Source of the DNA: Parcubacteria group bacterium GW2011_GWA2_40_14
GTDB taxonomy: Bacteria > Patescibacteriota > Minisyncoccia > Phycocordibacterales > DATDWN01
NCBI GenBank assembly: GCA_000996025.1
Contig: LBYF01000001.1
Location: 3,507-67,506, forward strand
Direction: 5' to 3'
DNA length: 64,000 bases
This document shows, one piece after another, positions 1-64,000 of this stretch. Position 1 is the first letter of the stretch. Each line of letters starts with the position of its first letter. The notes under the pieces are model-generated. The model saw nothing but the letters and a program-made list of their open reading frames with translations, did no database searches and was not told where the DNA came from. Made by a program: the position numbers and the translations under genes.

Positions 1-490
1 CTTTTGAGAGTGGTTGGCCTGTATTTTTTGCAAGCATCTTATTTAGAGTCTCACGATTTTTTAGAATGCGTTTTGCGGATATTTCTATATCAGAAGCTTG
101 TCCTTCGGTTCCGCCATGAGGTTGGTGAATCATAACTTCAGCATTTGGCAGGGCAAATCTTTTGCCTTTTGCGCCGGCGGAGAGTATGACTGCTCCCATA
201 GATGCGGCAAGTCCAACACCTACAGTAGAGATATCATTTTTGAGGTGATTCATAGTATCTACTATTGCAAGACCGGCAGTGATTGAACCTCCAGGTGAGT
301 TTACATAGAAAGAAATGTCTTTTTTGGAATCTTCAGACTGGAGGAAAAGCATTTGGGCGATAATAAGGTTTGCCACATGGTCGTCAATAGGACCATCCAG
401 GAAAATAATATTGTCGCGCAAAAGCCGTGAGAAAATATCGTAAGCTCTTTCCCCGAATTGTGATTTTTCTATTACTGTAGGTATAAGCAT
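1..490 (-). CDS. clpP: ATP-dependent Clp protease proteolytic subunit ClpP; 3' end runs off the window
   Basis: The reverse-strand translation starts [24 protein letters not shown] and contains the ClpP Ser-His region ([22 protein letters not shown]). It was not in the ORF track because it has no stop inside the window. Confidence 0.85.
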
Positions 491-572
491 AAATATACGA
501 AATAACGAATTAAAACACGAATGGCTACGAATAATTCGTTGCAATTCGTAGACTCATTTGTTACTTCGTATA
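491..572. repeat. Family-1 palindromic repeat copy (upstream of rsmE)
   Basis: The sequence atacgaaataacgaattaaaacacgaatggctacgaataattcgttgcaattcgtagactcatttgttacttcgtatat is nearly identical to the copy at 8884. Confidence 0.75.
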
Positions 573-619
573 TTATCAGAAAATAAAAAATAGTCAAAAT
601 TGTGTTATATTAGGTAATC

Positions 620-1354
620 ATGAGACTTCATAGATTTTATGTAGACAAACCTATCACCGATGAAACATTTGATGTGAATGACAGAGACTTAATTGCCCAG
701 TGGCGGAGTGTTTTTCGCTACAATGTCGGTAGTCAAGTGGTACTTTTTGATGGTTCGGGGGTAGATTATCTTTGCATGATTACATCACTTCGCAATCTTG
801 GCGCCACTGTTTCTATTATAAAAAAGACCAAGAATGATTTTGTTCCGAGTTGTGAACTGTGGCTGTGTGTTGGAATTATAAAAAAAGATAATTTTGAGCT
901 GGTGGTGGAGAAAGCAACAGAACTTGGGGTGTTACATATCGTTCCAATACTTTGCGACAGAAGCGAGAAAAAAAATATAAATATGGAACGCTTACAAAAA
1001 ATTGCAATTGAGTCTAGCGAGCAGTCCGGCAGGGGAGATGTGCCTGTTATACACGAAATCATTAACCTTTCTATGTTACTAATGTCAAAGAGTCCCTTTG
1101 ACATTATGCCAAAGGAGAAAATAGTATTACAGCTAAATAGCCGATATATCGGTGATTTTCTTGAAAAGCAACCGCTGGAAGCGAGCAGTGGTCGCATGAC
1201 CAAGTTGGCGGTTTTTATTGGTCCGGAAGGTGGATGGAGTGATAACGAACTGAAAGATTTTGCTCTGCACAACATACCCTCTGTCTCTCTTGGCCACCAA
1301 ATCCTCCGCACCGAAACCGCATCCATCGCCGTTTCAAGTTTATTGCTTTTGTAA
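620..1354 (+). CDS. rsmE: 16S rRNA (uracil1498-N3)-methyltransferase RsmE
   Basis: The 244-aa ORF has RsmE family signatures, including the C-terminal SLGxxILRTETA motif. Confidence 0.8.
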   Translation: MRLHRFYVDKPITDETFDVNDRDLIAQWRSVFRYNVGSQVVLFDGSGVDYLCMITSLRNLGATVSIIKKTKNDFVPSCELWLCVGIIKKDNFELVVEKATELGVLHIVPILCDRSEKKNINMERLQKIAIESSEQSGRGDVPVIHEIINLSMLLMSKSPFDIMPKEKIVLQLNSRYIGDFLEKQPLEASSGRMTKLAVFIGPEGGWSDNELKDFALHNIPSVSLGHQILRTETASIAVSSLLLL

Positions 1355-1357
1355 AAA

Positions 1358-1397
1358 TAAATGTGTAAGGGTTCGCCTTACACATTTGGTTTCATTT
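1358..1397 (+). terminator. Rho-independent terminator after rsmE
   Basis: An 11-bp stem (aatgtgtaagg / ccttacacatt) is followed by a T-rich run. Confidence 0.55.
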
Positions 1398-1528
1398 GAG
1401 GAGCCAGTTATTGAATTGTGTTAATAGTAGTTGTGTCACCCAAAAGGCAATTACTGACGGTATCAAACCTATTAGAAATTGTTTTGTAATTCTCATACAA
1501 ATCTCCAGTCTCCTTTCCTATTTGCATT

Positions 1529-4255: not shown

Positions 4256-5491
4256 TTATTTTTCTTCCTTAATTTCAACAGGAGTTTCTTCAACCTTCTC
4301 TTCTTTTATTTCACCTCGAGGATTTGTGGACTTTATATCTATTTTCCACCCAGTCAGTTTGGCCGCCAGCCGGACATTTTGTCCACCTTTGCCTATAGCC
4401 AAAGATTGCTGGTCTTCGGAAACAGTGACGCTTGCTTGTTTTTCTGTCTCATTTATTTCTACAGACAATACTTTGGCAGGGGACAGAGCATCTTCTATAA
4501 ATTTCTTAGGGGCTTCCGACCATTCAATAATATCTATTTTTTCTCCACCAAGCTCGGACATGACAGTAGAAACACGAACACCGCGCCCACCGACCATAGA
4601 GCCGACAGGGTCAATATGAGCATCTTTGGACGTCACGGCTATTTTTGTCCGAGAGCCGGCTTCACGGGCAATAGACTTTACAACCACAGTGCCATTGGCA
4701 ATCTCTGGTGTTTCTGTTTCAAAAAGTTTTTCTAAAAATTTTGGATGTGAACGAGAAAGTCGCAAAAACACTCCTTTGCTAGAGTCTTCCACTCGATAGA
4801 GATAGGCCCGGACACGCTCGCCTTGAGCAAATCGCTCTCCCGGAATCTGTTCTTCGTACGGTAATATACCTGGGGCACGACCCATATCTATGAAAATATT
4901 TCCTCGCTCCATTCTTTGTACTGTGCCAGAGACAATTTCACCTTCTTTCTTGCCATACTCACTGACAATATGTATTTTCTCGGCCTCGCGAATTTTCTGC
5001 ATGATAACTTGTTTGGCGGTTTGAGCGGCAATGCGACCATAGTCTCCTTGCGATTCCAGAGGGAAAACCATTTCATCACCCAAGGCAATATCTTTTTTGA
5101 TGCGTCGAGCATCGCTTAACATAATATGATGTTCGGGGTTATAGAGTTCAATTTCGGCATCGGGCGTCCCGGTGCCGATGTTGCCTTCTGCTCCGACGAC
5201 GTCACTTTTGGCCTTTTGGGACTTGCTGCCAAAGGCAGGTTCAACGTCGGCATCGGGACGCTCTGTCATAAAGACAGTATTTTCATCCACCACAATTTTA
5301 ACCTGAAACATTTCAGTTTTTCCGGTATTGAGGTCAAATTTTGCTCGCACAATCTGGCCTTTCTTGCCATATTCTTTTTTGTAGGCAGTTGCCAAAGCAA
5401 GCTCAATGGCTTCTATTATTTTTTCTTTTGGAATCCCGCGCTCTTCTTCAAGTTGGGTTAGCACAGAATTTACTACTTTTAGATCAATCAT
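4256..5491 (-). CDS. nusA: Transcription termination/antitermination factor NusA
   Basis: The N-terminal domain, S1 and KH regions are recognisable (MIDLKVV...QLEEERGIPKE), with a K/E-rich C-terminal tail. Confidence 0.9.
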   Translation of the reverse strand: MIDLKVVNSVLTQLEEERGIPKEKIIEAIELALATAYKKEYGKKGQIVRAKFDLNTGKTEMFQVKIVVDENTVFMTERPDADVEPAFGSKSQKAKSDVVGAEGNIGTGTPDAEIELYNPEHHIMLSDARRIKKDIALGDEMVFPLESQGDYGRIAAQTAKQVIMQKIREAEKIHIVSEYGKKEGEIVSGTVQRMERGNIFIDMGRAPGILPYEEQIPGERFAQGERVRAYLYRVEDSSKGVFLRLSRSHPKFLEKLFETETPEIANGTVVVKSIAREAGSRTKIAVTSKDAHIDPVGSMVGGRGVRVSTVMSELGGEKIDIIEWSEAPKKFIEDALSPAKVLSVEINETEKQASVTVSEDQQSLAIGKGGQNVRLAAKLTGWKIDIKSTNPRGEIKEEKVEETPVEIKEEK

Positions 5492-5500
5492 ACAAATAAG

Positions 5501-5540
5501 TTTATAAAGTTATAAAGTTTGTAAAGTTCATAAAGCTAAT
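5501..5540. repeat. Family-2 repeat (GTAAAGTTATAAAGTT words), partial copy upstream of nusA
   Basis: The sequence gtttataaagttataaagtttgtaaagttcataaagc recurs at 37634, 38802 and 56755. Confidence 0.6.
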
Positions 5541-5624
5541 TTTGATAAAAAGAATGTCCGCTCCCATGAGCGAACTTCAATGCACCTATACTATCATAAG
5601 CTCTATAGTCTTGTCAACAAAACA

Positions 5625-5672
5625 AAAAAAGAAAAACCCACCTAAGTCTTGCAAAGCAAAACTTAGGTGGGT
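5625..5672. terminator. Hairpin terminator between the convergent or divergent ends of nusA and the Clp-type ATPase
   Basis: The stem cccacctaagt...acttaggtggg is preceded by an A-run, which gives a T-run on the minus strand. Confidence 0.55.
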
Positions 5673-5698
5673 CCAATCCCAATGTTCAATCGGAAAGT

Positions 5699-6772
5699 TC
5701 ATAACGACACAGAGGTTCCCATCTCTTTGGAAAAGAGCATTTTGTCTACCGATTTTGCCAGATCAACCTTGATGATGTCGCCCAGGCCAATCTGTCCTGT
5801 GGCAATCAAATTGGAAAGTGGATAGACCAAAAACTTTTCGATCGCTCGCTTCAAATGACGCGCGCCATACTTTAGGTCCGTTCCTTGACGAAGCAGGAAT
5901 TCCTTGGCTTCTCCTGTGCATCTGAAGATGAACTGTTTGCCGGACTGCGACGCCAGGATGCGGTTCTGAACGTCGTTGAGTTCGATGTCCAGGATCTGCC
6001 TGAGGTGTTGTTGATTCAATGTGCGGAACACCACGACCTTATCGAGTCTGTTCATGAACTCCGGCGAAAACTTGCGCTTCGCCACTTCGAGAGCAGTGCG
6101 GTACATCTTCCGGTCGATATCGGCCAGATTGGATTCATCGGTCCGTACACCGGACGTGAATCCGATTCCGCCGGTCAGCATTTCACTCATCTCAACCGCC
6201 CCGAGGTTGGATGTCATGAACACCACGCATCGCGACAAGTCCACCTTGCGGTTGTCGCCTAAGGTGAGCGTGGCTTTATCCAGAATACCCAAGAGAAGCT
6301 GCCACAGCGCGTTATTGGCCTTTTCGATTTCGTCGAAGAGTATGAAACTTAACTTGCAAGTATCGGTCTGGTACTGATCAATTGCCCCCTGCGTCAAAAT
6401 CGGCGGAGTTTCGCGGTGTCCCAGATAGCCCGGAGGCGATCCGATGAGTTTCGCAATCTCATGGCTGTGCTGAAACTCGGCGCAATCGAGCTTGATAAAT
6501 GCCCGGGGGCTACCAAACAGGATTTCCGCGGAAGCTTCGACAACTCTGGTTTTTCCGGAACCGGTCGGTCCCAAAAACAGGAGGTTACCAATGGGACGAT
6601 TGGGCTGTGCCATACCTACCAGATAGACTTGGTACATGTTCACAATTTGACGAACTGCGCGATCCTGACCAATGATTTTGTTCAGCAGACCCTGTTCAAA
6701 GTCCAAGATTTCGTTGCTTTTTCTATCGGGGTTTAACACTACTTCTTCAGACTTTTTCATTACAGGCTTCAT
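5699..6772 (-). CDS. Stand-alone Clp/Hsp100-family AAA+ ATPase, D2 domain only
   Basis: Walker A (GPTGSGKTR), the sensor region and GSPPGYLGH are present, and the sequence aligns with the ClpB/ClpC second nucleotide-binding domain. It is noticeably more GC-rich than its neighbours and has a strong SD (aaaggagagact ATG). Confidence 0.8.
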   Translation of the reverse strand: MKPVMKKSEEVVLNPDRKSNEILDFEQGLLNKIIGQDRAVRQIVNMYQVYLVGMAQPNRPIGNLLFLGPTGSGKTRVVEASAEILFGSPRAFIKLDCAEFQHSHEIAKLIGSPPGYLGHRETPPILTQGAIDQYQTDTCKLSFILFDEIEKANNALWQLLLGILDKATLTLGDNRKVDLSRCVVFMTSNLGAVEMSEMLTGGIGFTSGVRTDESNLADIDRKMYRTALEVAKRKFSPEFMNRLDKVVVFRTLNQQHLRQILDIELNDVQNRILASQSGKQFIFRCTGEAKEFLLRQGTDLKYGARHLKRAIEKFLVYPLSNLIATGQIGLGDIIKVDLAKSVDKMLFSKEMGTSVSL

Positions 6773-6914
6773 AGTCTCTCCTTTGGATTAAAGCAGACAT
6801 TTAGAATTTGAAACACTATCAAAAAACAATCTGATTTACTTATAATATATTTACGAAAAAATATCAAATCAGAGTTTATCTGTTCTTATTCACACAATTT
6901 CGTGCCGGAGGAAG

Positions 6915-7015
6915 AATATTTTGATATACTAGATACGAAGTAACGAATAAGTTAACGAATTGCAACGAATAGAATCCATTCGTAGCCATTCGTGTTTTAA
7001 TTCGTTACTTCGTAT
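6915..7015. repeat. Family-1 palindromic repeat (TACGAA/TTCGTA words); abuts the pilB start codon
   Basis: This copy is the reverse complement of the copies at 491-572 and 8884-8967, and it ends ...cgttacttcgtatATG. Confidence 0.75.
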
Positions 7016-8785
7016 ATGCATATTGAAGAAAAACAATTAAAAGATTTTATTTTGGACTCGGGGCTTGTCTCGCGGGCTGACTTAACTCTGGCTGAAAAAG
7101 AAGGTCTGGAAAAGGGAGTAAGCTTGGGCAAAGTTTTGGTGAGCAAAGGAAAGCTTTCAGAAGATGATTTACGACGGATGCAGGCCTATATTCTGGGTAT
7201 TCCTTTTGTGGACCTCAAGGGCGAGAAATTGCCATTTGAAGTTCTCTCTCTTATTCCGGAGCCGATTGCTCGCAATCACAATATTGTAGCTTTCAAGAAA
7301 ACAGACTCTAGTTTGGAGGTAGCTATGTTAGACACCGAGGATTTGACTGCCATTGATTTTATCAAAAAGAAAGTAGGCCTCCGAATTTTACCTCGCTTGA
7401 CCGATGCCGACTCTGTCAAAAGCGCAATCCTCCAATATCAAAAGTCTCTCAAGGCGGAGTTTGGCGATTTAATTGCCAAGGAGGTTTCGTCACTTGAATT
7501 GAATCCGCTGAAACGAAGTGAAGGCGATGAAAACGAGGTCATAACTACGACAGAAGATTTGAAAAAAATGGCCGATGATGTGCCTGTGGTGCGCATAGTG
7601 GATACATTGCTGAAGCATGCCATTTTGCAAAACGCATCCGACATTCACATAGAGCCGCAGGAGCTGGAACTTCTGGTTCGCTATCGTATTGATGGCTTGC
7701 TTCACGATGCCATGCTCCTGCCGAAAAATGTGGGAGCATCCATTGCCGCTCGTATCAAAGTTTTGGCCATGCTCAAGCTTGATGAAAAGCGTTTGCCACA
7801 GGACGGCAGATTCAAAATTGACATGAATGGCGAGAAAGTTTCTTTTCGTGTTTCCACCTTGCCGACATATTATGGTGAGAAAACAGTTATGCGACTCCTC
7901 CGCGAAAATGTTTCCGGCTTTACACTGGAATCCCTCGGTTTTCATGGTGTGGGACTGGAGCGTATTCACAGAGCCGTCCAATCCACGACCGGCATGATAC
8001 TGGCTACCGGCCCGACTGGTTCTGGAAAAACCACCACTTTGTATACTATTTTGGATATTTTAAATACTGTTGATGTCAATATTTCCACAATTGAAGACCC
8101 AATAGAATATCAGATGAAGCGTATTAACCAAACTCAAGTTCGTCCAGAGATAGGATTAACATTTGCAAACGGATTGCGCACTTTGGTTCGCCAAGACCCG
8201 GATATTATTATGGTCGGTGAAATTCGTGACAATGAAACGGCTAATCTGGCTATAAATGCGTCGCTCACCGGTCATGTCGTTCTCTCAACACTTCATACAA
8301 ACTCTGCCGCCGGAGCCGTCCCTCGCTTGATAGATATGAAAGTGGAACCGTTTCTTATTGTTTCCACTGTTAATGTTATTATTGCCCAGCGTCTTATCCG
8401 AAAACTTGGAGATGGAAAAGAAAAATATTTTTTGACCAAAGCCGAGCTTCTAACTTTGGGCAAGAGAGTTAATTTAGACAAAGTCTTAGCTACTTTGAAG
8501 GAAGAAAAAATTGTAGGTCAAAGCGATGTTTGGGAACAAGTTCCTTTTTGGCGCCTGAAAAAGAATGTTTCATCCGAAGACGGTTTCTCCGGACGCATTG
8601 GCATTCACGAAATATTGAAAGTTTCTTTGCCAATAAAAGATATTATTCTCAAAGACGGCACCTCGGACGCAATCCAAAAACAAGCTGAAAGCGAAGGTAT
8701 GCTGACTATGTTTGAGGACGGCATCTTCAAAGCGGTACAAGGTGTAACCACCATTGAGGAAGTTCTTAGGGTTATCTCGGAATAG
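7016..8785 (+). CDS. pilB: Type IV pilus / type II secretion assembly ATPase PilB/GspE
   Basis: The ORF has an N-terminal GspE-N domain, Walker A GPTGSGKTTT, and Asp and His boxes. Confidence 0.9.
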   Translation: MHIEEKQLKDFILDSGLVSRADLTLAEKEGLEKGVSLGKVLVSKGKLSEDDLRRMQAYILGIPFVDLKGEKLPFEVLSLIPEPIARNHNIVAFKKTDSSLEVAMLDTEDLTAIDFIKKKVGLRILPRLTDADSVKSAILQYQKSLKAEFGDLIAKEVSSLELNPLKRSEGDENEVITTTEDLKKMADDVPVVRIVDTLLKHAILQNASDIHIEPQELELLVRYRIDGLLHDAMLLPKNVGASIAARIKVLAMLKLDEKRLPQDGRFKIDMNGEKVSFRVSTLPTYYGEKTVMRLLRENVSGFTLESLGFHGVGLERIHRAVQSTTGMILATGPTGSGKTTTLYTILDILNTVDVNISTIEDPIEYQMKRINQTQVRPEIGLTFANGLRTLVRQDPDIIMVGEIRDNETANLAINASLTGHVVLSTLHTNSAAGAVPRLIDMKVEPFLIVSTVNVIIAQRLIRKLGDGKEKYFLTKAELLTLGKRVNLDKVLATLKEEKIVGQSDVWEQVPFWRLKKNVSSEDGFSGRIGIHEILKVSLPIKDIILKDGTSDAIQKQAESEGMLTMFEDGIFKAVQGVTTIEEVLRVISE

Positions 8786-8790
8786 ACGAA

Positions 8791-8826
8791 GACTTCCAAA
8801 TCTGGCGCATTTCGTTGTTGGAAAGC
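8791..8826. repeat. Family-5 motif (GACTTCCAAATCTGGCG...GTTGTTGGA) immediately after the pilB stop
   Basis: The same words follow the tuf stop at 31221. Confidence 0.6.
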
Positions 8827-8883
8827 AAAAAATAAATCTTATACACAATTTTTGTGAAAATAAAATAAAATTTTGGTACAATA

Positions 8884-8967
8884 AACATACGAAATAACGA
8901 ATTAAAACACGAATGGCTACGGATTATTCGTTGCAATTCGTAGACCCATTCGTTACTTCGTATATTT
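8884..8967. repeat. Family-1 palindromic repeat; abuts the pilC start codon
   Basis: The copy ends ...cgttacttcgtatatttATG. Confidence 0.75.
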
Positions 8968-10182
8968 ATGTTATTTCATTACAAAGCACTGGATAGTACA
9001 GGGAAAGAGGTTGAGGCAAATCTGGAAGCCAAGGACAGGTTTGCTCTGTATCATGCCGTAAAAAAAGATGGCAATACAGTTATCTTTACAGAGGAAGTCA
9101 AAGCCAAAGGAAGATTTTCCTTGATAAAACTTTTACCATTTTTGGATAATGTTACAGCCCATGACAAAATAATTTTTGCCAGAAATCTTTCCAAAATGAT
9201 TCTGGCCGGTCTGCCCATTACTCGGGCCCTCTCTATTATGGAGAGGCAAGCCCGCGGCGGATTAAAGTCAGTTTTGAAAAATTTGAGTGAATCGGTAGGA
9301 AAAGGCACTACACTTTCCGAATCAATGAAAAATTTTCCAGATGTTTTTTCAACCCTTTTTACTTCAATGGTCCGAGCTGGAGAAGAATCAGGGAATTTGG
9401 CAACTAGCTTGGAGAATGTTGGTATGCAAATGGAGAAAACATACCAGCTTAATCGTAAAATACGCGGAGCAATGCTCTATCCGGCCATTATTCTGCTACT
9501 GATGGTCGCTATAGGTATTCTGATGATGGTTTATATGGTGCCGACATTAACTGCCACATTTATCGGTCTCAATTTAGACCTGCCGGTTTCTACACGCATT
9601 ATCATTTTTGTCAGTAATTTTCTAGCCGGTTATTTTACATTTTTTATTTTGGGAGTTGTGGTGACGACTGTCCTCCTCGTTTTTGCTTTTCGTAGCGACC
9701 AAGGGAAACGACTTTTAGAGGCGTTTCTTCTTCGCCTACCTATTATCGGAGAAATAGTAAAGGAGATTAATTCAGCGCGGACGGCCCGAACATTATCCTC
9801 GCTTCTTTCTTCGGGGGTGGATATTGTCTTGGCAGTCGGAGTGACAAAAGATGTCATACAAAACTCCTATTACAAAAAAGTTTTGGAAGAAGTGCAGATT
9901 AATATTCAAAAAGGAGAGGCCATCTCATCAGTTTTTTCATCTCATATTGATTTATATCCTATTTTTGTCGGGGAAATGGTAAATGTGGGAGAGGAAACGG
10001 GTAAAATAGCCGAAATGCTTAGCAATGTTGCTTTATTTTATGAGGAAGAAGTAGACCAAAAGACAAAAGATATTTCCTCTTTGATTGAACCGTTTTTGAT
10101 GATTTTTATTGGTTTGGCAGTTGGATTTTTCGCCATGGCGGTTATTAGCCCTATCTACTCATTAGGGGACTCCATACAATGA
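8968..10182 (+). CDS. pilC: Type IV pilus inner-membrane platform protein PilC/GspF
   Basis: There are two GspF repeats with TM segments. The stop overlaps the next start (ATGA). Confidence 0.9.
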   Translation: MLFHYKALDSTGKEVEANLEAKDRFALYHAVKKDGNTVIFTEEVKAKGRFSLIKLLPFLDNVTAHDKIIFARNLSKMILAGLPITRALSIMERQARGGLKSVLKNLSESVGKGTTLSESMKNFPDVFSTLFTSMVRAGEESGNLATSLENVGMQMEKTYQLNRKIRGAMLYPAIILLLMVAIGILMMVYMVPTLTATFIGLNLDLPVSTRIIIFVSNFLAGYFTFFILGVVVTTVLLVFAFRSDQGKRLLEAFLLRLPIIGEIVKEINSARTARTLSSLLSSGVDIVLAVGVTKDVIQNSYYKKVLEEVQINIQKGEAISSVFSSHIDLYPIFVGEMVNVGEETGKIAEMLSNVALFYEEEVDQKTKDISSLIEPFLMIFIGLAVGFFAMAVISPIYSLGDSIQ

Positions 10183-10643
10183 AATTAAATTATAAATCTG
10201 GGTTTACAATTTTTGAATTTCTCATAGCCATTTCTATCATGGCTCTTCTTGTGGCCATAGTATTTTCTGGTTTTATAAACTTGAGGAAACATCAGGCCTT
10301 AAAATTGGATACGGAAACTATCGCGGGAATATTACGAGAAGCTAGGAGTGAAACTCTGGCATCCAAAAATGGAACGCGATATGGAGTGCATTTCTCGGCT
10401 ACAAAAGTTACTCTCTTTGCCGGTTCTGTGTACAATCCAAGCGACCCCAATAACAAAGATTTTATGTTGAATGCAAGTGATGCAGTTTTTAACATCACTC
10501 TTGCCGGTGGAGGAAGCGATGTTATCTTTAATCGTTTGACCGGAGAAACATCGCAAAATGGCGTGATTACTCTTTCCTCCCCATCCACAGCACAAATAAA
10601 AACTGTTACAGTATACAAAACAGGAGTAGTTGAAAGTAATTAG
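10179..10643 (+). CDS. Prepilin-type N-terminal cleavage/methylation domain pseudopilin
   Basis: The N-terminus KSGFTIFEFLIAISIMALL is a class III signal (G|FTxxE plus a hydrophobic helix). Confidence 0.7.
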   Translation: MKLNYKSGFTIFEFLIAISIMALLVAIVFSGFINLRKHQALKLDTETIAGILREARSETLASKNGTRYGVHFSATKVTLFAGSVYNPSDPNNKDFMLNASDAVFNITLAGGGSDVIFNRLTGETSQNGVITLSSPSTAQIKTVTVYKTGVVESN

Positions 10644-10669
10644 GGAGTCTATAATACAATTTATATACA

Positions 10670-11158
10670 ATGTGGTCATACAATAAAAAAAACAATCGCG
10701 GTATGGCTCTAATAGAAATAGTCATAGGGGCCTCTATCATATCGGTCGGCATTTTGGCCATTTCTACCGCTTACAATACATATGTACAGCATGCTTTTGC
10801 AAACGAGAAAAATATCCAGGCGGCCTATATTTTGGAGGAGGGATTGGAAGCGGTAACACTCCTGCGTGACAAGGGGTGGAATGCAAATATCAAACTGCTT
10901 TCCACCACAACCACATATTATTTGACCTTGGTCCCGACCTACTGGGCTACCACAACCACACCACAATATATTGATGGAACATTTCTACGAAATATTGCTA
11001 TTACCGATGTAAAGCGCGACCTAAACGACCGTATCGCCACCGCAGGCACATATGACCCAAACACAAAACTAGTCACGGCGACAGTTTCCTATTTCCAAGG
11101 ACACGGCACGACCACGCGCTCCCTTTCAACTTATATAGCTAACATATATAACAACTGA
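10670..11158 (+). CDS. Pseudopilin (prepilin-type N-terminus)
   Basis: The N-terminus reads RGMALIEIVIGASIISVGILAI. Confidence 0.65.
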   Translation: MWSYNKKNNRGMALIEIVIGASIISVGILAISTAYNTYVQHAFANEKNIQAAYILEEGLEAVTLLRDKGWNANIKLLSTTTTYYLTLVPTYWATTTTPQYIDGTFLRNIAITDVKRDLNDRIATAGTYDPNTKLVTATVSYFQGHGTTTRSLSTYIANIYNN

Positions 11159-13000: not shown

Positions 13001-13021
13001 TCCCGTGTTACAATAAAACTC

Positions 13022-49663: not shown

Positions 49664-49679
49664 TTTTTATTTTTGAATT

Positions 49680-52056: not shown

Positions 52057-52589
52057 GCTTTCTCATGACAAAGTCATTAATTATCACTTAGTTCAGGAAG
52101 ACATTCTCTACGACGTTAATTTAGACGGTATATTAGAATAGAAGCTGCTTCGCGCTTTTATTTCACTCACCCTACGTCAGGCTTAAAAGTCAATAGCCCA
52201 ACTTCATCGTGTATTCCTCCAGCTGTGATACAATATAAACAGGGTTACGTATATTTTCTACCTAACCATTTTTTAGGGAGTCCAATATTTTTGTGCCACG
52301 ATGAGTAAAATTTATTATTTTGTTCTGACGAGTACAATTGCGGACACCCACCTACGAGTTTTGTAGGAGAATATTCGTAATCCGATTAAGCTATCCAGTA
52401 TTTTTGCAAAAAGAGCTGGATGTTTTAATTTATCTTATTTTCGGATTTTTTGTAATCCTGAATACACATCATCAAAATTACAAAATCGTTAATAAGTACT
52501 TATTTATAGCCATATATACTTTGTTAATTCATTGAATATATTAACTTAATCAATTTGGATTATAAACAAATTCGTGTTAAAATAGATGT

Positions 52590-52868
52590 ATGAATACACC
52601 CTTAAGTCAGTTTATAAAACAGAGGCCTCATTTGATTTGGTATACCAAAAACTATGACGGTTTGGACGCCGAATCCATCGTTGAAGCTACACTAAACTAT
52701 GGTAATTGGGACGATGTGCAGGAACTTATAAAAATTCTAGGAATGAAAAAAACCGCCCAGATTTTCCGAGAAAAATCCAAACCGGATAAATTTGGCAGAC
52801 AGAATTACGATTCTCGGGTAAAAAATTATTTTCAACTATACTTTGGTAAATATGTCAAACATGCATAA
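52590..52868 (+). CDS. Hypothetical protein, possible cognate partner of the downstream AbiEii-like toxin
   Basis: The ORF overlaps the next gene by 26 nt. No family was recognised. Confidence 0.3.
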   Translation: MNTPLSQFIKQRPHLIWYTKNYDGLDAESIVEATLNYGNWDDVQELIKILGMKKTAQIFREKSKPDKFGRQNYDSRVKNYFQLYFGKYVKHA

Positions 52869-53472
52869 AGAAATTTTTACACAAGAACAGATTAAACTTC
52901 TACCTTTGATTAGGAAATTTTCCAAGGATTTCGGTCTTGTTGGTGGGACAGCCATTGCATTGCATTTAGGTCATAGGCGCTCAATAGACTTTGACATGTT
53001 TTCCAATAAACCGTTCAATAATGTGGCTGTGCGTAGGAAAATAAAAAATACGCACAGTATTCAAAAGGTCTTCAAAGACGAAACAGGACAATACACTTTT
53101 TTTGTTAATGAGGTGCAAATGACTTTTTATCATTTTCCCTATGAGATTGATTATTCGGAAAAATTTGAAGATTATGTCAAAATACCAAATCTGCTCATTC
53201 TCGCTGCGATGAAAGCTTTTGCTCTTGGTGGAAGAAATAAATGGAAGGACTATGTTGATTTATATTTTATTCTCAATAACCGTTTTTCTGTAGATGAAAT
53301 CTCCAAAAAAGCCAAAGAACTTTTCCAGGGAGAATTTAATGAAAAAATTTTTCGAAATCAGCTAGCTTATTTTGACGATATAAATTACAAGGAAACGGTG
53401 GACTTTCTGCCGGATTTTGAAGTGAGCGATGAAACGGTAAAAAAAGCTCTGATTGATTTTAGTATTTCCTGA
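52843..53472 (+). CDS. AbiEii/AbiGii-family nucleotidyltransferase toxin (DUF1814)
   Basis: GLVGGTAIALHLGHRRSIDFDMF is the characteristic DUF1814 motif. Confidence 0.7.
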   Translation: MVNMSNMHKEIFTQEQIKLLPLIRKFSKDFGLVGGTAIALHLGHRRSIDFDMFSNKPFNNVAVRRKIKNTHSIQKVFKDETGQYTFFVNEVQMTFYHFPYEIDYSEKFEDYVKIPNLLILAAMKAFALGGRNKWKDYVDLYFILNNRFSVDEISKKAKELFQGEFNEKIFRNQLAYFDDINYKETVDFLPDFEVSDETVKKALIDFSIS

Positions 53473-53654
53473 CATTGAAAGGGATATGTATAAAAACGAT
53501 TTATTTAAGTTCACAGATTTTACTTTCGAGCCCAAACACATTCAATTTTCCCAAGAAATTTTAAGAGAATCTCGAGTGCCGAACGAGGTATGGGTCATTG
53601 CTTCCCGGAAGTTCGAGTAAAATTGGACGAACTTAAAGCTATTAAAGTCACAGT

Positions 53655-54056
53655 ATGATGTTTCAAACAAAACTTTTTAAACAAGCATTCCTTCTGCTTT
53701 TTGTTGTTGGTATTTTAAATTTGGTTGGAACAGAACTATATTTGTATTGGACACTCTGGTGGTATGACATTATTCTACATTTTCTCTCTGCTGGGGTGGT
53801 TTCTCTAGCTACCATTGTATTCTTTCGCATCTTTCTTGGAAAACGGTTGTCAGGTCAGACATTAATTAAATATGCGGTTTTTTGCGCCCTAGTAGTTGGT
53901 ATTATCTGGGAAATATATGAACTTTATTTTGAGATGACATATCTTTCTGACGGCATGATTTATGTAACAGACACAGTATCAGACCTTATTATGGACATTG
54001 CAGGTGGACTTCTCGGTTCAATATATGCAATTAGATTAGTAAAAAATAATGAGTAA
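53655..54056 (+). CDS. Small 4-TM membrane protein
   Basis: The hydrophobic ORF overlaps the downstream beta-CASP gene by 8 nt. Confidence 0.4.
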   Translation: MMFQTKLFKQAFLLLFVVGILNLVGTELYLYWTLWWYDIILHFLSAGVVSLATIVFFRIFLGKRLSGQTLIKYAVFCALVVGIIWEIYELYFEMTYLSDGMIYVTDTVSDLIMDIAGGLLGSIYAIRLVKNNE

Positions 54057-55422
54057 ATTACAAATAACTTTTTATGGCGGAGTAGGCACTGTTACAGGGG
54101 CAAATTTCTTGCTTGAAAGTAATAACACCAAGATTCTTATTGATTGTGGACTATTACAAGGCACACCCGATGGAGTGGAGGAAAATAGGAAACCATTTCC
54201 ATATGATACAAAATCAATAGATTATCTTTTTATCACCCATGCTCACATGGACCATATAGGCAGAGTGTGCAAGCTAGTCAGAGATGGTTTTAGAGGGACA
54301 ATTTATTCAACACCTGAAACAAGAGAGATTGCTAGTGTCATGATTCTTGATGCATTAAAAATAATGGACCAAAATTATCGCAATCCACAAAACGGAGTTA
54401 GCGAAAGGCCATTATATGAACTAGCTGACTATAACCAAGCGTTTTCTATATGGAAAACCATAGAATATGATACCCAAACTGAAATTAATGAAGAATTTTC
54501 AGTTTATCTGAAAGATGGTGGGCATATTCTGGGCTCTGCCATGTATGAATTTAGTTATAATGGTAAAAAAGTTGTTTTTACGGGCGATTCTGGGAATTCT
54601 CCCTCACCGCTTTTGAAAAATACAGAAAATGTGACTGATGCAGATTATCTAATCATTGACAGTGTTTATGGCGACAGAAATCATGAGCCAAAAGAGGAAA
54701 GAGACCAAAGATTTAAGCAAATTATTTTAGATACGATAGAAAAAAGAGGGGCACTAGTTATTCCAGCATTTTCTGTAGAGCGAACGCAAGTTATTTTGTA
54801 TGAATTAAATAATCTAGTTGAAGAAAAAAAGATCCCATCTGTGCCAGTTTTTCTAGATTCACCTTTGGGTTCAAAAGTGACGAACATTTACGCTAGAAGT
54901 TCAAAAGATTTTAATACTGGAGTGCAGAGAGAAATAAAAGAAGGAGATGATATTTTTAATTTTCCAAAACTGACTATCACTGCGGGTTCAGGGGATTCCA
55001 AACAGATTGTCAGTATTCCAAATCCCAAAATAATCGTGGCGGGTTCAGGAATGTCTTCTGGTGGCAGGGTATTGTGGCACGAGATGCAATACTTGCCAGA
55101 CCCAAAGAACACAGTACTTCTCATGGGCTACCAAGCACTTGGCACATTGGGTAGAAGAATACAGGACAAACCAAAGGAAGTGGAAATACATGGTCAAATC
55201 GTACCCATTCGTGCTCGTATAGAAATGATTTCCGGCTACTCATCGCACAAAGACTCTGATAGCTTGGTGGCTATGGTTGAGCAAACAAAAGCTACGTTGA
55301 AAAAAGTTTTTGTAGTCATGGGCGAACCAAAGTCATCCACATATCTGGCCCAGCGTCTGCGCGATGAGCTTCTCGTGGAAGCTATTTACCCAGAAAAAGG
55401 CAAACCTTATCTATTGGAGTAA
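54049..55422 (+). CDS. Beta-CASP / MBL-fold RNA-metabolising metallo-hydrolase (RNase J/CPSF-like)
   Basis: ITHAHMDHIG (HxHxDH), DSVYGD, and a beta-CASP middle region with an RNA-specificity C-terminus are present. Confidence 0.8.
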   Translation: MSKLQITFYGGVGTVTGANFLLESNNTKILIDCGLLQGTPDGVEENRKPFPYDTKSIDYLFITHAHMDHIGRVCKLVRDGFRGTIYSTPETREIASVMILDALKIMDQNYRNPQNGVSERPLYELADYNQAFSIWKTIEYDTQTEINEEFSVYLKDGGHILGSAMYEFSYNGKKVVFTGDSGNSPSPLLKNTENVTDADYLIIDSVYGDRNHEPKEERDQRFKQIILDTIEKRGALVIPAFSVERTQVILYELNNLVEEKKIPSVPVFLDSPLGSKVTNIYARSSKDFNTGVQREIKEGDDIFNFPKLTITAGSGDSKQIVSIPNPKIIVAGSGMSSGGRVLWHEMQYLPDPKNTVLLMGYQALGTLGRRIQDKPKEVEIHGQIVPIRARIEMISGYSSHKDSDSLVAMVEQTKATLKKVFVVMGEPKSSTYLAQRLRDELLVEAIYPEKGKPYLLE

Positions 55423-55467
55423 ATTGCTAATTGATTTTTAATGACGAAGTGATATACTGGAGGCACT

Positions 55468-55656
55468 ATGAGCAAAGCTGAAAAGGAAATTGTAAAAGTG
55501 GTCAAAAAGACAATTCTCGAATCTATTCATGGGGTTTTTGCCGACCCTGATCAAGGACTGGAACTCAAAGAATCTATAAAAAGACGCCTGAAAAAAGCAT
55601 CGTTATCTCCCAAAGGATTTATTACCCTTCCATCCGCCAGAAGAAAATTTGCTTAA
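55468..55656 (+). CDS. Putative antitoxin for the downstream RelE/ParE toxin
   Basis: The 62-aa ORF has an SD (GGAGG) and sits 5 nt before the toxin gene. Confidence 0.45.
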   Translation: MSKAEKEIVKVVKKTILESIHGVFADPDQGLELKESIKRRLKKASLSPKGFITLPSARRKFA

Positions 55657-55661
55657 TTTAT

Positions 55662-55925
55662 ATGTTGCGCTGGAAAGTAATTTTTTCGCTTGACGCACAA
55701 GATGATTTGGATAATTTGTCTCGCTCAGTGCGGGATAGGGTTTTTGATAAGCTGGGATGGTTTGAAAATAATTTTGACTCAATAACACCTCTCCTTTTAA
55801 CTGGGAAGTTTAACGGTTTCTACAAGTTGCGAGTGGGTGATTGGCGGGTAATGTATCAGATTGATTGGAATAAAAATTATATTATTATTCATGTTATTGA
55901 CCACAGATCAAACATCTACAAGTAA
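55662..55925 (+). CDS. RelE/ParE-family toxin
   Basis: YKLRVGDWRVMYQIDWNKNYIIIHVIDHRSNIYK is the canonical RelE/ParE C-terminus. Confidence 0.75.
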   Translation: MLRWKVIFSLDAQDDLDNLSRSVRDRVFDKLGWFENNFDSITPLLLTGKFNGFYKLRVGDWRVMYQIDWNKNYIIIHVIDHRSNIYK

Positions 55926-56563: not shown

Positions 56564-56752
56564 TTAATTTGTAATAAATCTTGCCTTATCTTTGTTACTC
56601 ATCGGGAAATTGACCATGCCTTTTTTGGCAAGTTGAGAACGGCGACTTTCTTTTGCATTGAAATGGTTTTGACCAGTTTTTCTTGCCGAAATTTTTCCAT
56701 TCTTGCTGACTTTTAGTCGTTTTGTAAAACTTTTATTTGTTTTTGTGCTCAT
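56564..56752 (-). CDS. rpmI: 50S ribosomal protein L35
   Basis: The small basic ORF (MSTKTNKSFTKRLKVSKNGK) sits between infC and rplT. Confidence 0.85.
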   Translation of the reverse strand: MSTKTNKSFTKRLKVSKNGKISARKTGQNHFNAKESRRSQLAKKGMVNFPMSNKDKARFITN

Positions 56753-56754
56753 AT

Positions 56755-56844
56755 GTTTAGTTTGTAAAGTTATAAAGTTTGTAAAGTTTCTAAAGTGGAA
56801 TGCATTTGATGTTACTTTATGAACTTTATAACTTTATGAACTTT
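56755..56844. repeat. Family-2 palindromic repeat between infC and rpmI
   Basis: The copy reads tttgtaaagttataaagtttgtaaagtttctaaagt...ctttatgaactttataactttatgaactttc. Confidence 0.75.
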
Positions 56845-57354
56845 CTAACTTCTCTCGATTACTATCGAGAGACCTTTCAAACTTTTCTTGGCGGGATCTG
56901 CCACTTTATATTCTTCGGTAATCAGTTTCAAAACCCTTTCTATGCGTTCCTTTAGAAACTTGATATCCATATATTTGGTTCTACCTGGCAAAAAAAGGTC
57001 TATTTTGATGCGATTTCCTTCCTTGAGCCAGCCACTGGCCTTTTTGGCTTTGAGCTCTAAGTCGTGTTCCCCAGTGCCTACTTTTATTTGAATATTCTTT
57101 ACCTCTACCGTATGTTGCTTGGTTTTTGCTGTTTTAAGCTTTTTGTTTTCAGCGTATTGAAATTTACCATAATCCATGATTTTTGCAACCGGTGGGTTGG
57201 CGTTTGGTGATATTAGAATAAGGTCAAGCCCCGCCTCACGGGCTTTTTCCAAAGCTTCTTTGAAAGAGATAACTCCCAGATTCGTGCCATCATCTAAAAG
57301 CACACGTAACTCTGGAGCTTGGATTTGATTGTTTATTTTTACGAATGTAGACAA
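56845..57354 (-). CDS. infC: Translation initiation factor IF-3
   Basis: IRAPELRVLLDDG..GVISFKEAL and the C-terminal domain are present. The true start codon may be non-canonical. Confidence 0.9.
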   Translation of the reverse strand: MSTFVKINNQIQAPELRVLLDDGTNLGVISFKEALEKAREAGLDLILISPNANPPVAKIMDYGKFQYAENKKLKTAKTKQHTVEVKNIQIKVGTGEHDLELKAKKASGWLKEGNRIKIDLFLPGRTKYMDIKFLKERIERVLKLITEEYKVADPAKKSLKGLSIVIERS

Positions 57355-57514
57355 TATTTTAGAACTGAATGTTCGCGATTTAACTTATAATAAAATATAG
57401 CAATAAGATATCATATTTTTTTTGGGAATGCAAAATTCATACAAGCAGTTGACTTTGGAGAGATATTACTTTAGTTTTATCTATGGATTAGCACATCGAC
57501 ATAAGGAGGCATTC

Positions 57515-58252
57515 ATGGATGCAAAAGAAAAAATTATCCTCGCACTGGATGTTAATTCCAGAGAGGAAGCACTAGAGTTGGTTCGGATATTCAGGAATTT
57601 CGTTTCAATGTTCAAAGTAGGATTGCGGCTTTTTGTGGCTTGCGGGCCAAACCTTGTCAAAGAAATCATCGGGCAAGGGAATAAGGTTTTTCTTGACTTG
57701 AAATTTAATGATACGCCAAAGACAGTAGGAGAGGCGACCAAAGAAGCTTCCATGCTGGGCGTGGAAATGTTCACTGTTCACGCCTCTGCTGGTATTTCTG
57801 CCATGAAGGAGGCAGTTGCCAATAAGGGGAATTCAAAACTGCTGATTACCACGGTTCTGACCTCGCTTTCGGATAACCATCTGAATCCTCGTAATACTAC
57901 GCGTTATATTTTAGGAGAAATAACACAACAGAAGGTCAGGCACTTCTCCGAAGACGCTGTTTATGTTGGGGCAGATGGCATTACCTGTTCACCTCAAGAC
58001 CTCAAAATGCTTGAGTTTCACATGGGACATGAATCCTTTCGGCGGTTACTAAAAGTAACTCCTGGAATTTGCGAAACAAATGATCTGCCAAGTGGTCAAA
58101 AACGCACAATGACAGCAAGAGAAGCTATCTTGGATGGAGCAGATTATCTCGTTCTTAGCCGAGTTATTACAGAAACAAAAGTAGGTAGTCCGATGAACGC
58201 GCTACTTCGCATCACTGCGGAAATTTCTTCCGTCGAAAGGAGAACGAATTGA
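57515..58252 (+). CDS. pyrF: Orotidine 5'-phosphate decarboxylase
   Basis: ILALDV...DLKFNDTPKT is the catalytic Asp-Lys-Asp context. An SD (AAGGAGG) is present and GC is higher than in flanking DNA. Confidence 0.8.
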   Translation: MDAKEKIILALDVNSREEALELVRIFRNFVSMFKVGLRLFVACGPNLVKEIIGQGNKVFLDLKFNDTPKTVGEATKEASMLGVEMFTVHASAGISAMKEAVANKGNSKLLITTVLTSLSDNHLNPRNTTRYILGEITQQKVRHFSEDAVYVGADGITCSPQDLKMLEFHMGHESFRRLLKVTPGICETNDLPSGQKRTMTAREAILDGADYLVLSRVITETKVGSPMNALLRITAEISSVERRTN

Positions 58253-61340: not shown

Positions 61341-61352
61341 ATTTTATACAAC

Positions 61353-61380
61353 AAAATAGCCTTATTTTAGGGCTTTTTGT
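61353..61380 (+). terminator. Rho-independent terminator paralogous to the one at 59733
   Basis: The sequence is aaatagccttattttagggctttttgtt. Confidence 0.5.
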
Positions 61381-61919
61381 TGTTGTGGCGCTTCACGAGT
61401 ACATTCAGCATCCTACAAAAATATAGTCGCTTCGCTTGTTATTTTGTGGAAGTGGCGATATCGAAATCGCATGCATACAGAGAATTGAAACGAATCTACA
61501 GCGCGTAGTTTATTTAATGTTTAAATCATATTGCTTGGAACAAACAAAATGCGATACAATCGAGTCTTCTTTATTTCAAAATATTTCCGAGACAAAAAAT
61601 ATTTCTAACCTCAAGTTATGTCAATCAACTCCTCGTACGAGATATGTGAGGAGCGACCGTCTCTTAGGGCTGTTGTTTAGACAGTGGCGTAAGAGAAAGC
61701 GAAGTCGTTTGCTCCATAAAATGGAGAGACGATTGCTTTAGATAAGTTTTTTACACTTAATCTTTCCAAACTGTTTTAGGAGAGCTTGGCGCTCCGCGTT
61801 GCCTGAATCAATGTCATCTATATGTCAAAACCTGTCACTCCCGAAAAATAGTAGTCAATAGCTAGTATTTAGTAGCCAGGTGAAGACAACTACTTTTCGG
61901 GAATTTTTGGTTTATCTTG

Positions 61920-62363
61920 TCAACGATCTTTAAAATCTCTTCCTATCTCTCTTTCCGTATCTCGTTTTTTCAATGTCTCGCGTTTATCAAACTTTTTCTT
62001 ACCTTTTGCAGTGGCAATATCAATCTTCACTTTCGGTCCTTTATTATATACCGAAAGAGGGACAATTGTCAACCTGTTTTTTTGGTCTATGGATACGAGC
62101 TCGGATATCTCTTTTTTTGTAAGCAATAGTTTGCGATTGCGGTAGGGGTCATAATCTTTCGGCGTATTTGCCGGCTGATATGGTGGAACGAACATCCCAA
62201 CTACGTATGCTTCACCACCTCGTATGGTAATATGAGCACCCTCCAATGAGCCCTGACCAGCTTTTAGGGATTTTACTTCAAAACCAAAAAGCTCTATGCC
62301 AGCAACATAGGTATCCAATATCTCGTAATTAAACCTAGCTTTTTTATTGGTTATGAGTGACAT
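61920..62363 (-). CDS. smpB: SsrA-binding protein SmpB
   Basis: ARFNYEILDTYVAGIEL.G.EVKSL is the SmpB signature. Confidence 0.9.
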   Translation of the reverse strand: MSLITNKKARFNYEILDTYVAGIELFGFEVKSLKAGQGSLEGAHITIRGGEAYVVGMFVPPYQPANTPKDYDPYRNRKLLLTKKEISELVSIDQKNRLTIVPLSVYNKGPKVKIDIATAKGKKKFDKRETLKKRDTEREIGRDFKDR

Positions 62364-62433
62364 GCCATAATCCTAACACAAAAACTTTTACTTCACTTTT
62401 ACTTTACTTAAATTCGTGTATACTACGGCTAAT

Positions 62434-64000
62434 ATGAATAGTCCCAATCAAAAGTCATCAGAAAAGACCAAGATAATTATAAAGAAAACAAACAAAGGTG
62501 ACAAAGGGCCAGAAGGTAACTCTATTGTCAGCTACATTGTTTCTGTGCTGATCATGTTTATTGTTTTATCCGCATTGTACTCTTTTGTTTCTGGCAAAAC
62601 TGAGAAGAAAGCGGAAAACATTCCTATTTCAGAGTTGGCGGCGGATATTAAATCTGGCGTCGTAAAAAATATTATCGTCAAAGGAGATGTGCTTCTCGTT
62701 GAGTATACATCCGGCGACGAAAAAACATCCAAGAAAGAAACAGACGTTGCTTTATCGCAAACCCTGGTGAATTATAGTGTGACCAAAGAGCAACTTGCTC
62801 TTATAAGCATAAATATAAAAGAGGAAAGCAGTCTTAGTTACTGGCTCATGAATCTGGCGCCGATTATTTTTCCAATTTTATTTATTTTTGTTTTTATTTG
62901 GTTTATCTCCAGGCAAGTTAAAGGTGCTGGCATACAAGCGTTGACTTTTGGCCAGTCCAAAGCGCGGATGATTGACCCAAACGACAAGAACAGCCGAGTA
63001 ACTTTCAAAGACGTGGCTGGTTGCAAGGAAGCAAAAGAAGAACTGGCAGAAATAGTGGACTTTCTGCGTAATCCAAAAAAGTTTTTAGACATTGGGGCTC
63101 GTATTCCAAAAGGTATTCTACTTATGGGGCCACCGGGTAGTGGAAAAACTCTACTGGCAAGAGCTGTTAGCGGTGAAGCTGGTGTGGCCTTTTTTTCCAT
63201 CTCTGGCTCGGAGTTCGTGGAAATGTTTGTTGGTGTGGGAGCGTCACGAGTCAGAGATTTGTTTCTCTTGGCCAAGAAAAATGCCCCAGCTATTATTTTT
63301 GTAGATGAGATAGATGCTGTTGGGCGAATACGTGGCGCTGGTCTCGGTGGGGGAAACGACGAGCGCGAACAAACATTGAATCAGATTCTAGTTGAGATGG
63401 ATGGTTTTGAGCCGAATGAAAAAGTTATTGTTATGGCTGCAACGAATCGTCCAGACGTTCTGGACCCTGCCCTCCTTCGTCCCGGCAGGTTTGATAGGCG
63501 AGTAACTCTGGACTTACCAGACCGCAAAGACCGTGAAGATATTTTGATTGTTCATAGCAAAGAAAAACCATTTGCAGAAGATGTAAATCTGAAAGTTATA
63601 GCCGAACGTACTCCGGGATTTTCTGGCGCGGATTTGTATTCACTTATGAACGAAGGAGCAATACTTGCCGCTCGTGAAAATCGCACCACGGTTGCTCAAT
63701 ACGACCTTATACGTTCTATTGAAAAAGTTATGCTCGGTCCTGAACGCAAAAGTCACATTCTTTCCAAAAAAGAAAAAGAAATCACTGCCTATCACGAAGC
63801 GGGACACGCAGTTTTGGCATCTCTTTTGCCATATGCCGACCCGGTACACAAGATTTCAATTATTGCTCGTGGTCATGCCGCTGGGTATGTTTTGAAACTT
63901 CCACTAGAAGACAGCAGAATGCAATCAAAAAAAGAATTTCTGGATGATATTGCAGTTTCCCTAGGAGGATATGTTACAGAGAAATTGCTTTTTGATGACT
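62434..64000 (+). CDS. ftsH: ATP-dependent zinc metalloprotease FtsH; 3' end runs off the window
   Basis: Two TM segments, an AAA domain ([16 protein letters not shown]), SRH, and the start of the HEAGHA zinc site are present. It is absent from the ORF track because there is no stop inside the window. Confidence 0.9.

Follow-up and report, generated by a model that had tools for sequence, protein, structure and literature searches.

In other bacteria, Shine-Dalgarno (SD) usage is usually strongest on highly expressed genes. Here we analyse the translation-start signals of a 64,000-nt stretch of DNA from Parcubacteria group bacterium GW2011_GWA2_40_14 (GenBank contig LBYF01000001.1, positions 3,507 to 67,506 of the forward strand; hereafter the window), in which the conserved core genes carry no SD and a small set of non-core genes does. 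One of the closest described systems is that of Flavobacterium johnsoniae, where start codons are reportedly preceded by A-rich 'Kozak-like' bases, the anti-SD is said to be occluded, and a few genes such as rpsU reportedly keep an SD. As in the Bacteroidetes, the upstream regions studied here are rich in A (up to 59-68% at −6) and poor in G (3-12%), and SDs are rare genome-wide and kept at a few specific genes; unlike in the Bacteroidetes, an apparently strong leaderless component is added, and the SD set is accessory or foreign instead of comprising a ribosomal autoregulatory gene. We know of no report of ribosomal-protein genes without SDs in leaderless-dominated bacteria.

Bacteria rich in leaderless mRNAs are well established, and toxin-antitoxin genes are typically leaderless (PMC4007540, PMC3898074, PMC8485053, PMC6028130). 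The present locus resembles Deinococcus deserti, Mycobacterium tuberculosis and 'group C' of GeneMarkS-2 in having a −10 box at a fixed short distance before the start, and in that a large share of first genes appears to have no 5′ untranslated region, the leaderless state being read here from sequence only. For group C, GeneMarkS-2 employs dual promoter-plus-ribosome-binding-site (RBS) start models, in which internal and leadered genes are modelled with an RBS (PMC6028130), whereas the internal and leadered core genes of the window and its clade lack SDs (0/42 in the window; 1.2% in the clade). Closer still, only 48% of the 16S genes of Parcubacteria were reported to have the CCTCCT anti-SD motif, with an overlap with the uL1-less group (Tsurumaki et al. 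2022, PMC9297842). Unusual SD usage in the clade was therefore already known, and SD-independent translation is implied there for the same superphylum as here; that study concerned rRNA, not mRNA start regions, and describes no core/accessory split, leaderless promoters or conserved SDs at particular genes. A literature search outside subscription journals gave this study as the only relevant one on Parcubacteria, and yielded no account of ribosomal-cluster hot spots in the clade, nor of its mRNA start signals or a division of SDs between core and accessory genes.

For each of 84 gene starts in the window, the −20..−1 region was scored by its duplex energy with the canonical anti-SD ACCUCCUUU, which may not be the host's own 16S tail; no 16S rRNA gene was found in the window (Rfam), in 80 related loci or in the flanks past both window ends. 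Starts were placed at the first ATG, or at the start supported by homology for rpsL, rplB, rplV, rplX, rpsN, rpmB, recJ, rnhA and pyrF, and an SD was called strong at dG ≤ −8 kcal/mol. The resulting distribution is bimodal: seven genes lie at −8.8 to −12.0 kcal/mol, pilin154 at −6.4, and all the rest at or above −4.6. Chance expectation, taken from intergenic 20-mers, all 20-mers or internal ATGs, is 1.2-2.3 strong sites (Poisson p 0.0003-0.009 for the seven observed), while weak and moderate SDs in the window are not enriched (8 genes at ≤ −6 against 4.7-8.6 expected). The seven strong scorers are exactly the genes to which the first-pass annotation had assigned clear SDs, and all of the sites are purine-rich, complementary to CCUCC and properly spaced at 4-8 nt from the start. 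The seven genes that it had named as SD-less likewise score at or above −2.8 (tuf 0.7, fusA 0.6, rplC −1.7, secY 2.9, tpiA 0.6, pilB 0.6, recJ −2.8). The strong sites are:

6778-6783, minus strand: SD AAGGAG of the Clp ATPase gene (5699-6772), dG −8.9, 5 nt before the ATG at 6772
35633-35640, plus strand: SD GAGGAGGG of the 82-aa open reading frame (ORF) hyp82 (35645-35893), dG −12.0
40414-40419, plus strand: SD AAGGAG of a 79-aa secreted ORF (40425-40664) in the rplE/rpsN hot spot, dG −8.8
40925-40930, plus strand: SD-like GGGGGG (G6) of a regulator with four helix-turn-helix (HTH) domains (40938-41912), dG −10.0
55459-55463, plus strand: GGAGG before an antitoxin gene (55468-55656), dG −9.3
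57503-57509, plus strand: SD AAGGAGG of pyrF (57515-58252; NCBIfam pyrF), dG −11.1
58237-58242, plus strand: SD AAGGAG of a phosphoribosyltransferase (PRTase)-like gene, dG −9.0; its TTG start at 58249 overlaps the pyrF stop, and the gene ends at 58980

None of the 42 core genes has a strong SD, compared with 7 of the 42 non-core genes (Fisher p=0.012, with core and accessory labels of our own assignment). The earlier description of core genes without an SD and many accessory genes with one is thus borne out for the core; 'many' is too strong, as only 17% of the non-core genes qualify and the remaining 35, including most toxin-antitoxin genes and hypotheticals, have none.

The same division recurs in related species. 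The host belongs to Candidatus Zambryskibacteria (Parcubacteria/Paceibacteria, candidate phyla radiation (CPR); Rifle groundwater), with proteins identical to those of the window in Candidatus Zambryskibacteria bacterium RIFCSPHIGHO2_02_38_10.5, in Parcubacteria bacterium GW2011_GWF2_39_8b and in Rifle assemblies including GCA_001823815.1 and GCA_001825235.1. Its nearest species representatives are Zambryskiibacteriota/Minisyncoccia metagenome-assembled genomes with 86-87% uL2 identity; Nomura-, Kaiser- and other Paceibacteria come next. Scanning GTDB species genomes with uL2 gave 80 loci, each comprising the S10-spc region with 10 kb on either side; core starts were aligned to the window proteins, and other ORFs (≥90 aa, no window homologue) were started at the first ATG, blind to SDs. 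Core orthologues have a strong SD in 1.2% of 1261 cases, under the 3.6% background, and the direct comparison gives 12/1018 core genes against 55/460 other ORFs (p=1.5e-18). The strong-SD share of the other ORFs is 11-12%, drawn from 33 of 72 species; GGAG/GAGG peaks sharply at −13..−8, and the spacing mode is 4-7 nt. Around core starts, SD-like 5-mers are depleted throughout −20 to +25, and mis-called starts therefore cannot hide SDs there. De novo 5-mer enrichment puts GGAGG and AGGAG on top in the non-core set, where AAGGA and extended −10 words also emerge, and yields only A/T-rich words in core genes. The non-core ORFs without an SD include L10, L7/L12, MreB and GroEL. SD-less initiation of native core genes is thus supported clade-wide. 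An alternative anti-SD was considered as well and discarded, because de novo k-mer enrichment reveals no purine motif at core genes, and an apparent shared SD at locus L013 proved to be a mis-called start in an otherwise leaderless-type family.

Our preferred reading, to which we give a probability of roughly 60%, is that two modes of translation initiation coexist in this clade: an SD-less mode used by the core, and a functional SD mode for a non-core minority. The first would serve ~90% of genes, including all core genes, with no need of an SD, and would take three forms. First genes of transcription units would have leaderless transcripts, their −10 box ending 6-9 nt upstream of the ATG. 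In the window, −10-like hexamers (A2, T6 and at least 5/6 matches to TATAAT) do cluster at that distance, before 18 genes against ~3.6 expected (p=5e-8), and in the relatives the hexamers likewise peak 6-7 nt from the start. Examples are tpiA, rnhA, hyp852, M50, comEC-MBL, HIT, ppa, ftsH and several toxin-antitoxin genes, and the M50 orthologues in seven species have the same layout. Such a pile-up is the signature of leaderless mRNA, which suggests that the SD-less first genes are leaderless. Representative boxes are:

13009-13014, plus strand: −10 box TACAAT of tpiA, 7 nt before the ATG at 13022
17757-17762: −10 box of leaderless type before rnhA
26958-26963: −10 box of leaderless type before hyp852
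47876-47881: −10 box of leaderless type before MNT

Operon-internal genes would instead restart at a start codon lying next to the preceding stop; in the relatives, genes of the ribosomal-protein cluster are coupled with median spacers of 1-13 nt. In the window genome, many of these spacers are filled by a hairpin whose base would hold the stop close to the start. The leadered core genes, finally, tuf and rpsS among them, would rely on an A-rich, G-poor stretch with T at −1. The 295 uncoupled core genes without a −10 box have such an A-rich, G-depleted region at −12..−2: A makes up 40-59% of the bases from −11 to −2 (most at −6) and G 5-12%, and T reaches 53% at −1. In both tuf and rpsS, a promoter-like site lies more than 100 nt upstream, and the long leader is structured and lacks an SD. 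The tuf leader is not made of repeats; one fold spans its entire spacer, and another ends ~19 nt before the ATG. The leader and the cluster that follows are:

29838-30016, plus strand: SD-less structured 5′ leader of tuf, with a TTGACA...TATAGT promoter-like site ~150 nt upstream and A/C-rich sequence before the ATG
32476-46330, plus strand: S10-spc cluster of 25 core genes, none with an SD, into which hyp82, the secreted ORF and the HTH regulator are inserted

The second mode would cover ~8% of window genes and ~12% of the non-core ORFs of the clade, each with a canonically spaced GGAGG-type SD. It would include no core gene and would be confined to leadered genes, or genes away from an upstream stop, outside the highly expressed core. 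Its members would be heterogeneous, many of them acquired by transfer: a Clp-type ATPase import, patchily distributed small genes of the hot spots (hyp82, the secreted ORF and the HTH regulator) and the long-resident pyrF-PRTase pair.

The alternative that survives best is that the host ribosome does not pair with SDs at all, its anti-SD being lost or occluded, and that the SDs are unselected leftovers of recent transfers. This would agree with the frequent lack of a detectable CCTCCT at the 16S 3′ end in Parcubacteria (PMC9297842), with the fall of SD-like words below background at core genes, and with the nature of the SD-bearing ORFs in the relatives. These are mostly species-specific singletons, a class enriched for SDs (13.7% vs 5.6%, p=0.011), and about three quarters of them have no Pfam family, the 22 families that are matched (accessory enzymes and a PemK toxin) having one ORF each; the SD rate in the relatives also climbs from 7% to 45% with the excess of third-position GC content (GC3) over host core genes. 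The Clp/ClpB-D2-type AAA+ ATPase, moreover, is clearly imported. This orphan gene between pilB and nusA (Pfam AAA_2 and ClpB_D2-small; truncated, without a partner domain) has a GC content of 50% and a GC3 of 61%, compared with 39% and 34% for the genome (the window as a whole has 39% GC). Its protein shares 81-86% identity with ~391-aa proteins that form a very large family and whose named members are from Acidobacteria, its DNA is 76% identical to a gene on a 56%-GC contig, and it is found only in strains of the window's own species; it is demonstrably foreign and crossed between phyla into its CPR host very recently. In its atypical GC3, its high identity to a distant phylum and its restriction to strains of its own species, it behaves like a classical genomic-island gene.

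The other SD genes do not fit that pattern so readily. Four of the seven (hyp82, the HTH regulator, the antitoxin and pyrF) have near-host composition, two thirds of the SD-bearing ORFs in the relatives have ordinary GC3, and even the ATPase has an SD unlike that of the sampled Acidobacteria-type homologue, set in AT-rich, host-like sequence. As recent imports would be, hyp82, the secreted ORF and the HTH regulator are without homologues in the 80 loci, but no donor was found. The pyrF-PRTase pair does not fit recent acquisition. The closest non-self homologues of pyrF are only 46-51% identical and include Paceibacterota. In the distant relative L092, the pair adjoins smpB and ftsH as it does in the window (SmpB 51% identical), and strong SDs precede both pyrF (−12.5) and the PRTase gene (−8.9), while no SD stands before ftsH, smpB, an SDR gene and other neighbours, several of which, smpB and the SDR gene among them, carry a −10 box at the spacing of a leaderless start. 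Both SDs also occur at L096, and the L094 homologue of pyrF has one as well; at L095, pyrF is coupled 4 nt after obg without an SD, and the PRTase SD scores −13.1. The AAGGAG core of the PRTase SD is common to L092, L095 and L096 and its flanks differ.

A second set of conserved SDs belongs to hyp82. A word-based search matched only hyp82 itself; a full HMMER search gave a family of eight relatives, of which P0242 and P0244 have strong SDs, the family SD being present at L098 and L099. One relative with 59% identity lies directly upstream of rpsS in another organism, behind ataGGAGGAGGatt, and another with 47% identity lies in an unrelated context, behind AGGAGGtcgct. Since pyrF-PRTase and the hyp82 family have kept their SDs through deep divergence, we infer that the ribosome still reads them; the SD is probably functional in this clade and not a fossil, and the set appears to mix imports with old residents. 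Leftover SDs on a ribosome blind to them are thus unlikely. Because the pyrF-PRTase SDs are conserved, the SD is not a pure marker of transfer either, and the earlier proposal of an SD-independent host with imported genes that retain SDs stands for the host and for some of the SD genes, and fails for pyrF-PRTase. As a separate observation, four of six inspected genes at L094 (a Candidatus Buchananbacteria contig, 5001-10714) have strong SDs, so SD usage differs sharply between Parcubacteria subgroups.

A purely positional rule, by which any gene that is leadered or lies more than ~20 nt from an upstream stop needs an SD and the core escapes by being leaderless or coupled, is more doubtful. It would account for the concentration of SD-bearing ORFs in same-strand gaps of >60 nt (19%, against 4.6% when coupled), for the near mutual exclusion of SD and −10 box (1/55 vs 70/405, p=0.001), and for the leadered state of the HTH regulator, pyrF and the ATPase. 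Comparison within the same context largely refutes it: in same-strand gaps of >60 nt, 6/304 core genes have an SD against 36/189 other genes (p=5e-11), and in divergent context 2/89 core genes do. Since core genes in such gaps still lack an SD, position alone is insufficient, and the SD-less leaders of >100 nt at tuf and rpsS point the same way.

Several points weigh against the two-mode reading. The window p-value depends on the labels, which are our own, and rises to 0.25 when pyrF and the PRTase gene are classed as core. The PRTase SD lies within the 3′ coding end of pyrF, where coding constraint may contribute to its conservation. Within the 80 loci, SDs are not shared in any family of two or more members, so that SD conservation rests on two gene sets. 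The apparent leaderless state is read from promoter-like hexamers in AT-rich DNA, and a two-hexamer promoter scan of such DNA did not exceed shuffled sequence (62 vs 56), for which reason only single hits were taken from it. If the 16S tail of the host lacks CCUCC, finally, the SDs cannot work by pairing.

The first-pass annotation had also suggested that palindromic repeats abut the ATGs of SD-less genes and may replace the SD there. Hairpin elements of at least four families do occupy many junctions of the window, their arms being built of degenerate 7-9 nt tandem units (sub-repeat types GAGTAnC, AAAGTTnTA, ACGAAnnnn and TTTACATTTT). In many core-gene spacers they leave no more than ~10 nt free at either end, next to the upstream stop and next to the ATG (fold z of −4 to −13):

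37630-37723, plus strand: hairpin bridging the rpsC stop and the rplP ATG; hairpins of this kind are also at 6933-7015, 38793-38872, 42211-42354, 43404-43537 and 44480-44596 (fold z −5 to −13)
489-574, 5499-5545, 6933-7015, 8881-8966, 23842-23940, 33618-33701, 34349-34432, 36061-36107: spans of the repeat families, first group
36884-36967, 37626-37724, 38783-38881, 39244-39327, 39545-39628, 42222-42338, 42741-42857, 44479-44595, 56749-56863: spans of the repeat families, second group

Such abutment is found at pilB and at many ribosomal-protein genes, but not at the other genes named: tpiA and recJ have a −10 box 7 nt upstream of the ATG, the 27-nt spacer of secY is unstructured, fusA and rplC follow a terminator-like hairpin with a T-run, and the structured leader of tuf is not a repeat. 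That these repeats recruit ribosomes to native genes in place of an SD is very improbable, even though many of them end 0-10 nt before core-gene ATGs and none occurs in the accessory region at 46-56 kb. The sequences of the four families are different, and their ATG-proximal ends have no motif in common. L002 (87% rplB/uL2 identity) has A/T-rich spacers of 4-21 nt at 16 of 17 normally tight junctions (the other is 195 nt), with no repeats and no SD, which shows that the repeats are not needed for SD-less initiation. Most other relatives have short spacers at the repeat-bearing junctions; only L001, the closest relative, shares window-like repeats, and expanded spacers occur in a few other species, so the element does not accompany SD-less core genes wherever these occur in the clade. 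A reasonable reading is that palindromic insertions would be tolerated at coupled junctions because folding holds stop and start close together. The weakest explanation, that the sites are chance motifs favoured by SD-biased start choice, draws on alternative upstream TTG, GTG or ATG starts at hyp82, the secreted ORF, the HTH regulator, pyrF and the PRTase gene, and is hardly credible given the excess of strong sites over expectation, window starts that (the PRTase excepted) are the first ATG or homology-supported (pyrF), and the sharp positional peak at SD-blind first-ATG starts in the relatives.

Further structured elements were noted in the window. The repeats at 34349-34432 and 36884-36967 run into the 3′ ends of rplD and rplV, whose annotated C-terminal tails (for example ...KSKELRKIQNSDSKLDTHNS and ...ENREPSTEKRKIKNPKSKLVSRIS) are translated repeat DNA. 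Terminator-like hairpins with T-runs stand directly before the start codons of rplC (32942-33019) and fusA (~24680-24715) and may be attenuators inside ribosomal-protein transcription units. Two near-identical, nearly perfect 38-nt palindromes, ATACACCTATCA[T/C]ACGCTATAGCGT[A/G]TGATAGGTGTAT, lie at 31761-31798 and 40272-40309, downstream of tuf and rplE, and a 30-nt hairpin with a T-run, TTGCTAACACTGGGTGTTAGCAAGTTTTTA, is present as exact copies at 2435-2464 (upstream of tig) and 26904-26933 (downstream of fusA). These look like shared terminators or protein-binding sites.

Regarding the SD genes themselves, hyp82 comes last after rplB, ahead of a terminator-like hairpin, and matches no Pfam family. 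The HTH regulator (Pfam HTH_3/HTH_31, four copies) has a TTGACA...TGgTAGTTT promoter-like site upstream and, because its SD-like run lies downstream of that site, appears to be leadered. The GGAGG of the antitoxin sits between a full promoter (TTGATT-16-TG-TATACT, 55431-55458) and the ATG, and is doubtful as an SD, since the motif may go largely untranscribed if that promoter fires. NCBIfam confirmed the pyrF, ClpB/ClpA-like and RelE assignments and gave no match for the small ORFs and the PRTase-like gene; in PHROGs, the HTH regulator matched phage transcriptional-regulator families and the ATPase an ATP-dependent protease family, both of them generic hits, and the small ORFs matched nothing.

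A stronger version of the two-mode reading is possible but less likely than not: SD initiation would have been expelled from the whole core genome and would survive as a separate functional channel for accessory, regulated and incoming genes, with the rplB/rpsS, rplE/rpsN and fusA/tuf junctions as landing pads. SD cassettes inserted there would profit from strong transcription and could do without the leaderless or coupled starts of the host. Were the anti-SD in limited or regulated supply, the SD genes would form a translationally co-controlled group.

Across the 80 Paceibacteria species, fixed junctions of the str-S10-spc clusters are hot spots of insertion and synteny breakage. Gaps of >150 nt are found at rplB/rpsS in 52/58 cases, rplE/rpsN in 33/43, fusA/tuf in 32/34, rpsJ/rplC in 24/55 and rpsG/fusA in 12/27, and all other junctions have median spacers of 1-13 nt (L001-L080). 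The contents vary by species (small ORFans, MazF, rplJ-rplL, a TnpB-like gene), and strong SDs are frequent at the first ORF behind rplB. The hot spots of the window are:

35616-36100: rplB/rpsS
40235-42030: rplE/rpsN
26858-30016: fusA/tuf

Besides the str-S10-spc cluster, which lacks rpmD, the window contains clpP, rsmE, tig, ppa, nusA, a type IV pilus cluster, tpiA-pgk, recJ, rnhA, comEC, many toxin-antitoxin pairs, infC-rpmI-rplT, pyrF, tmRNA (Rfam), smpB and ftsH. At 46408-55925, the spc tail (secY ... adk ... map) is broken by at least five toxin-antitoxin pairs (MNT/HepT, RelB/YafQ-like, two of 62-aa antitoxin/RelE, and AbiEii with a 92-aa partner), several of which start with a −10 box at leaderless distance, and also holds a second, 356-aa adenylate-kinase-like gene. 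Among the ribosomal proteins, uS10 (32476-32898) has a Lys/Ala-rich N-terminal extension of ~40 aa, and uS19 (36101-36454) has an Ala/Lys-rich C-terminal tail matching the Parcubacteria-specific uS19 extension (PMC9297842).

Taken together, these results offer a testable picture of how genes start on a streamlined ribosome: leaderless, coupled or A-rich starts for the core and SDs for a minority. Gene finders and start annotation for CPR genomes should not lean on SD models, and several database starts for window genes differ from those used here. SD presence may serve as a cheap marker of non-core, partly foreign genes in Paceibacteria. The clade would be a natural counter-example to the rule that SDs are strongest on highly expressed genes.

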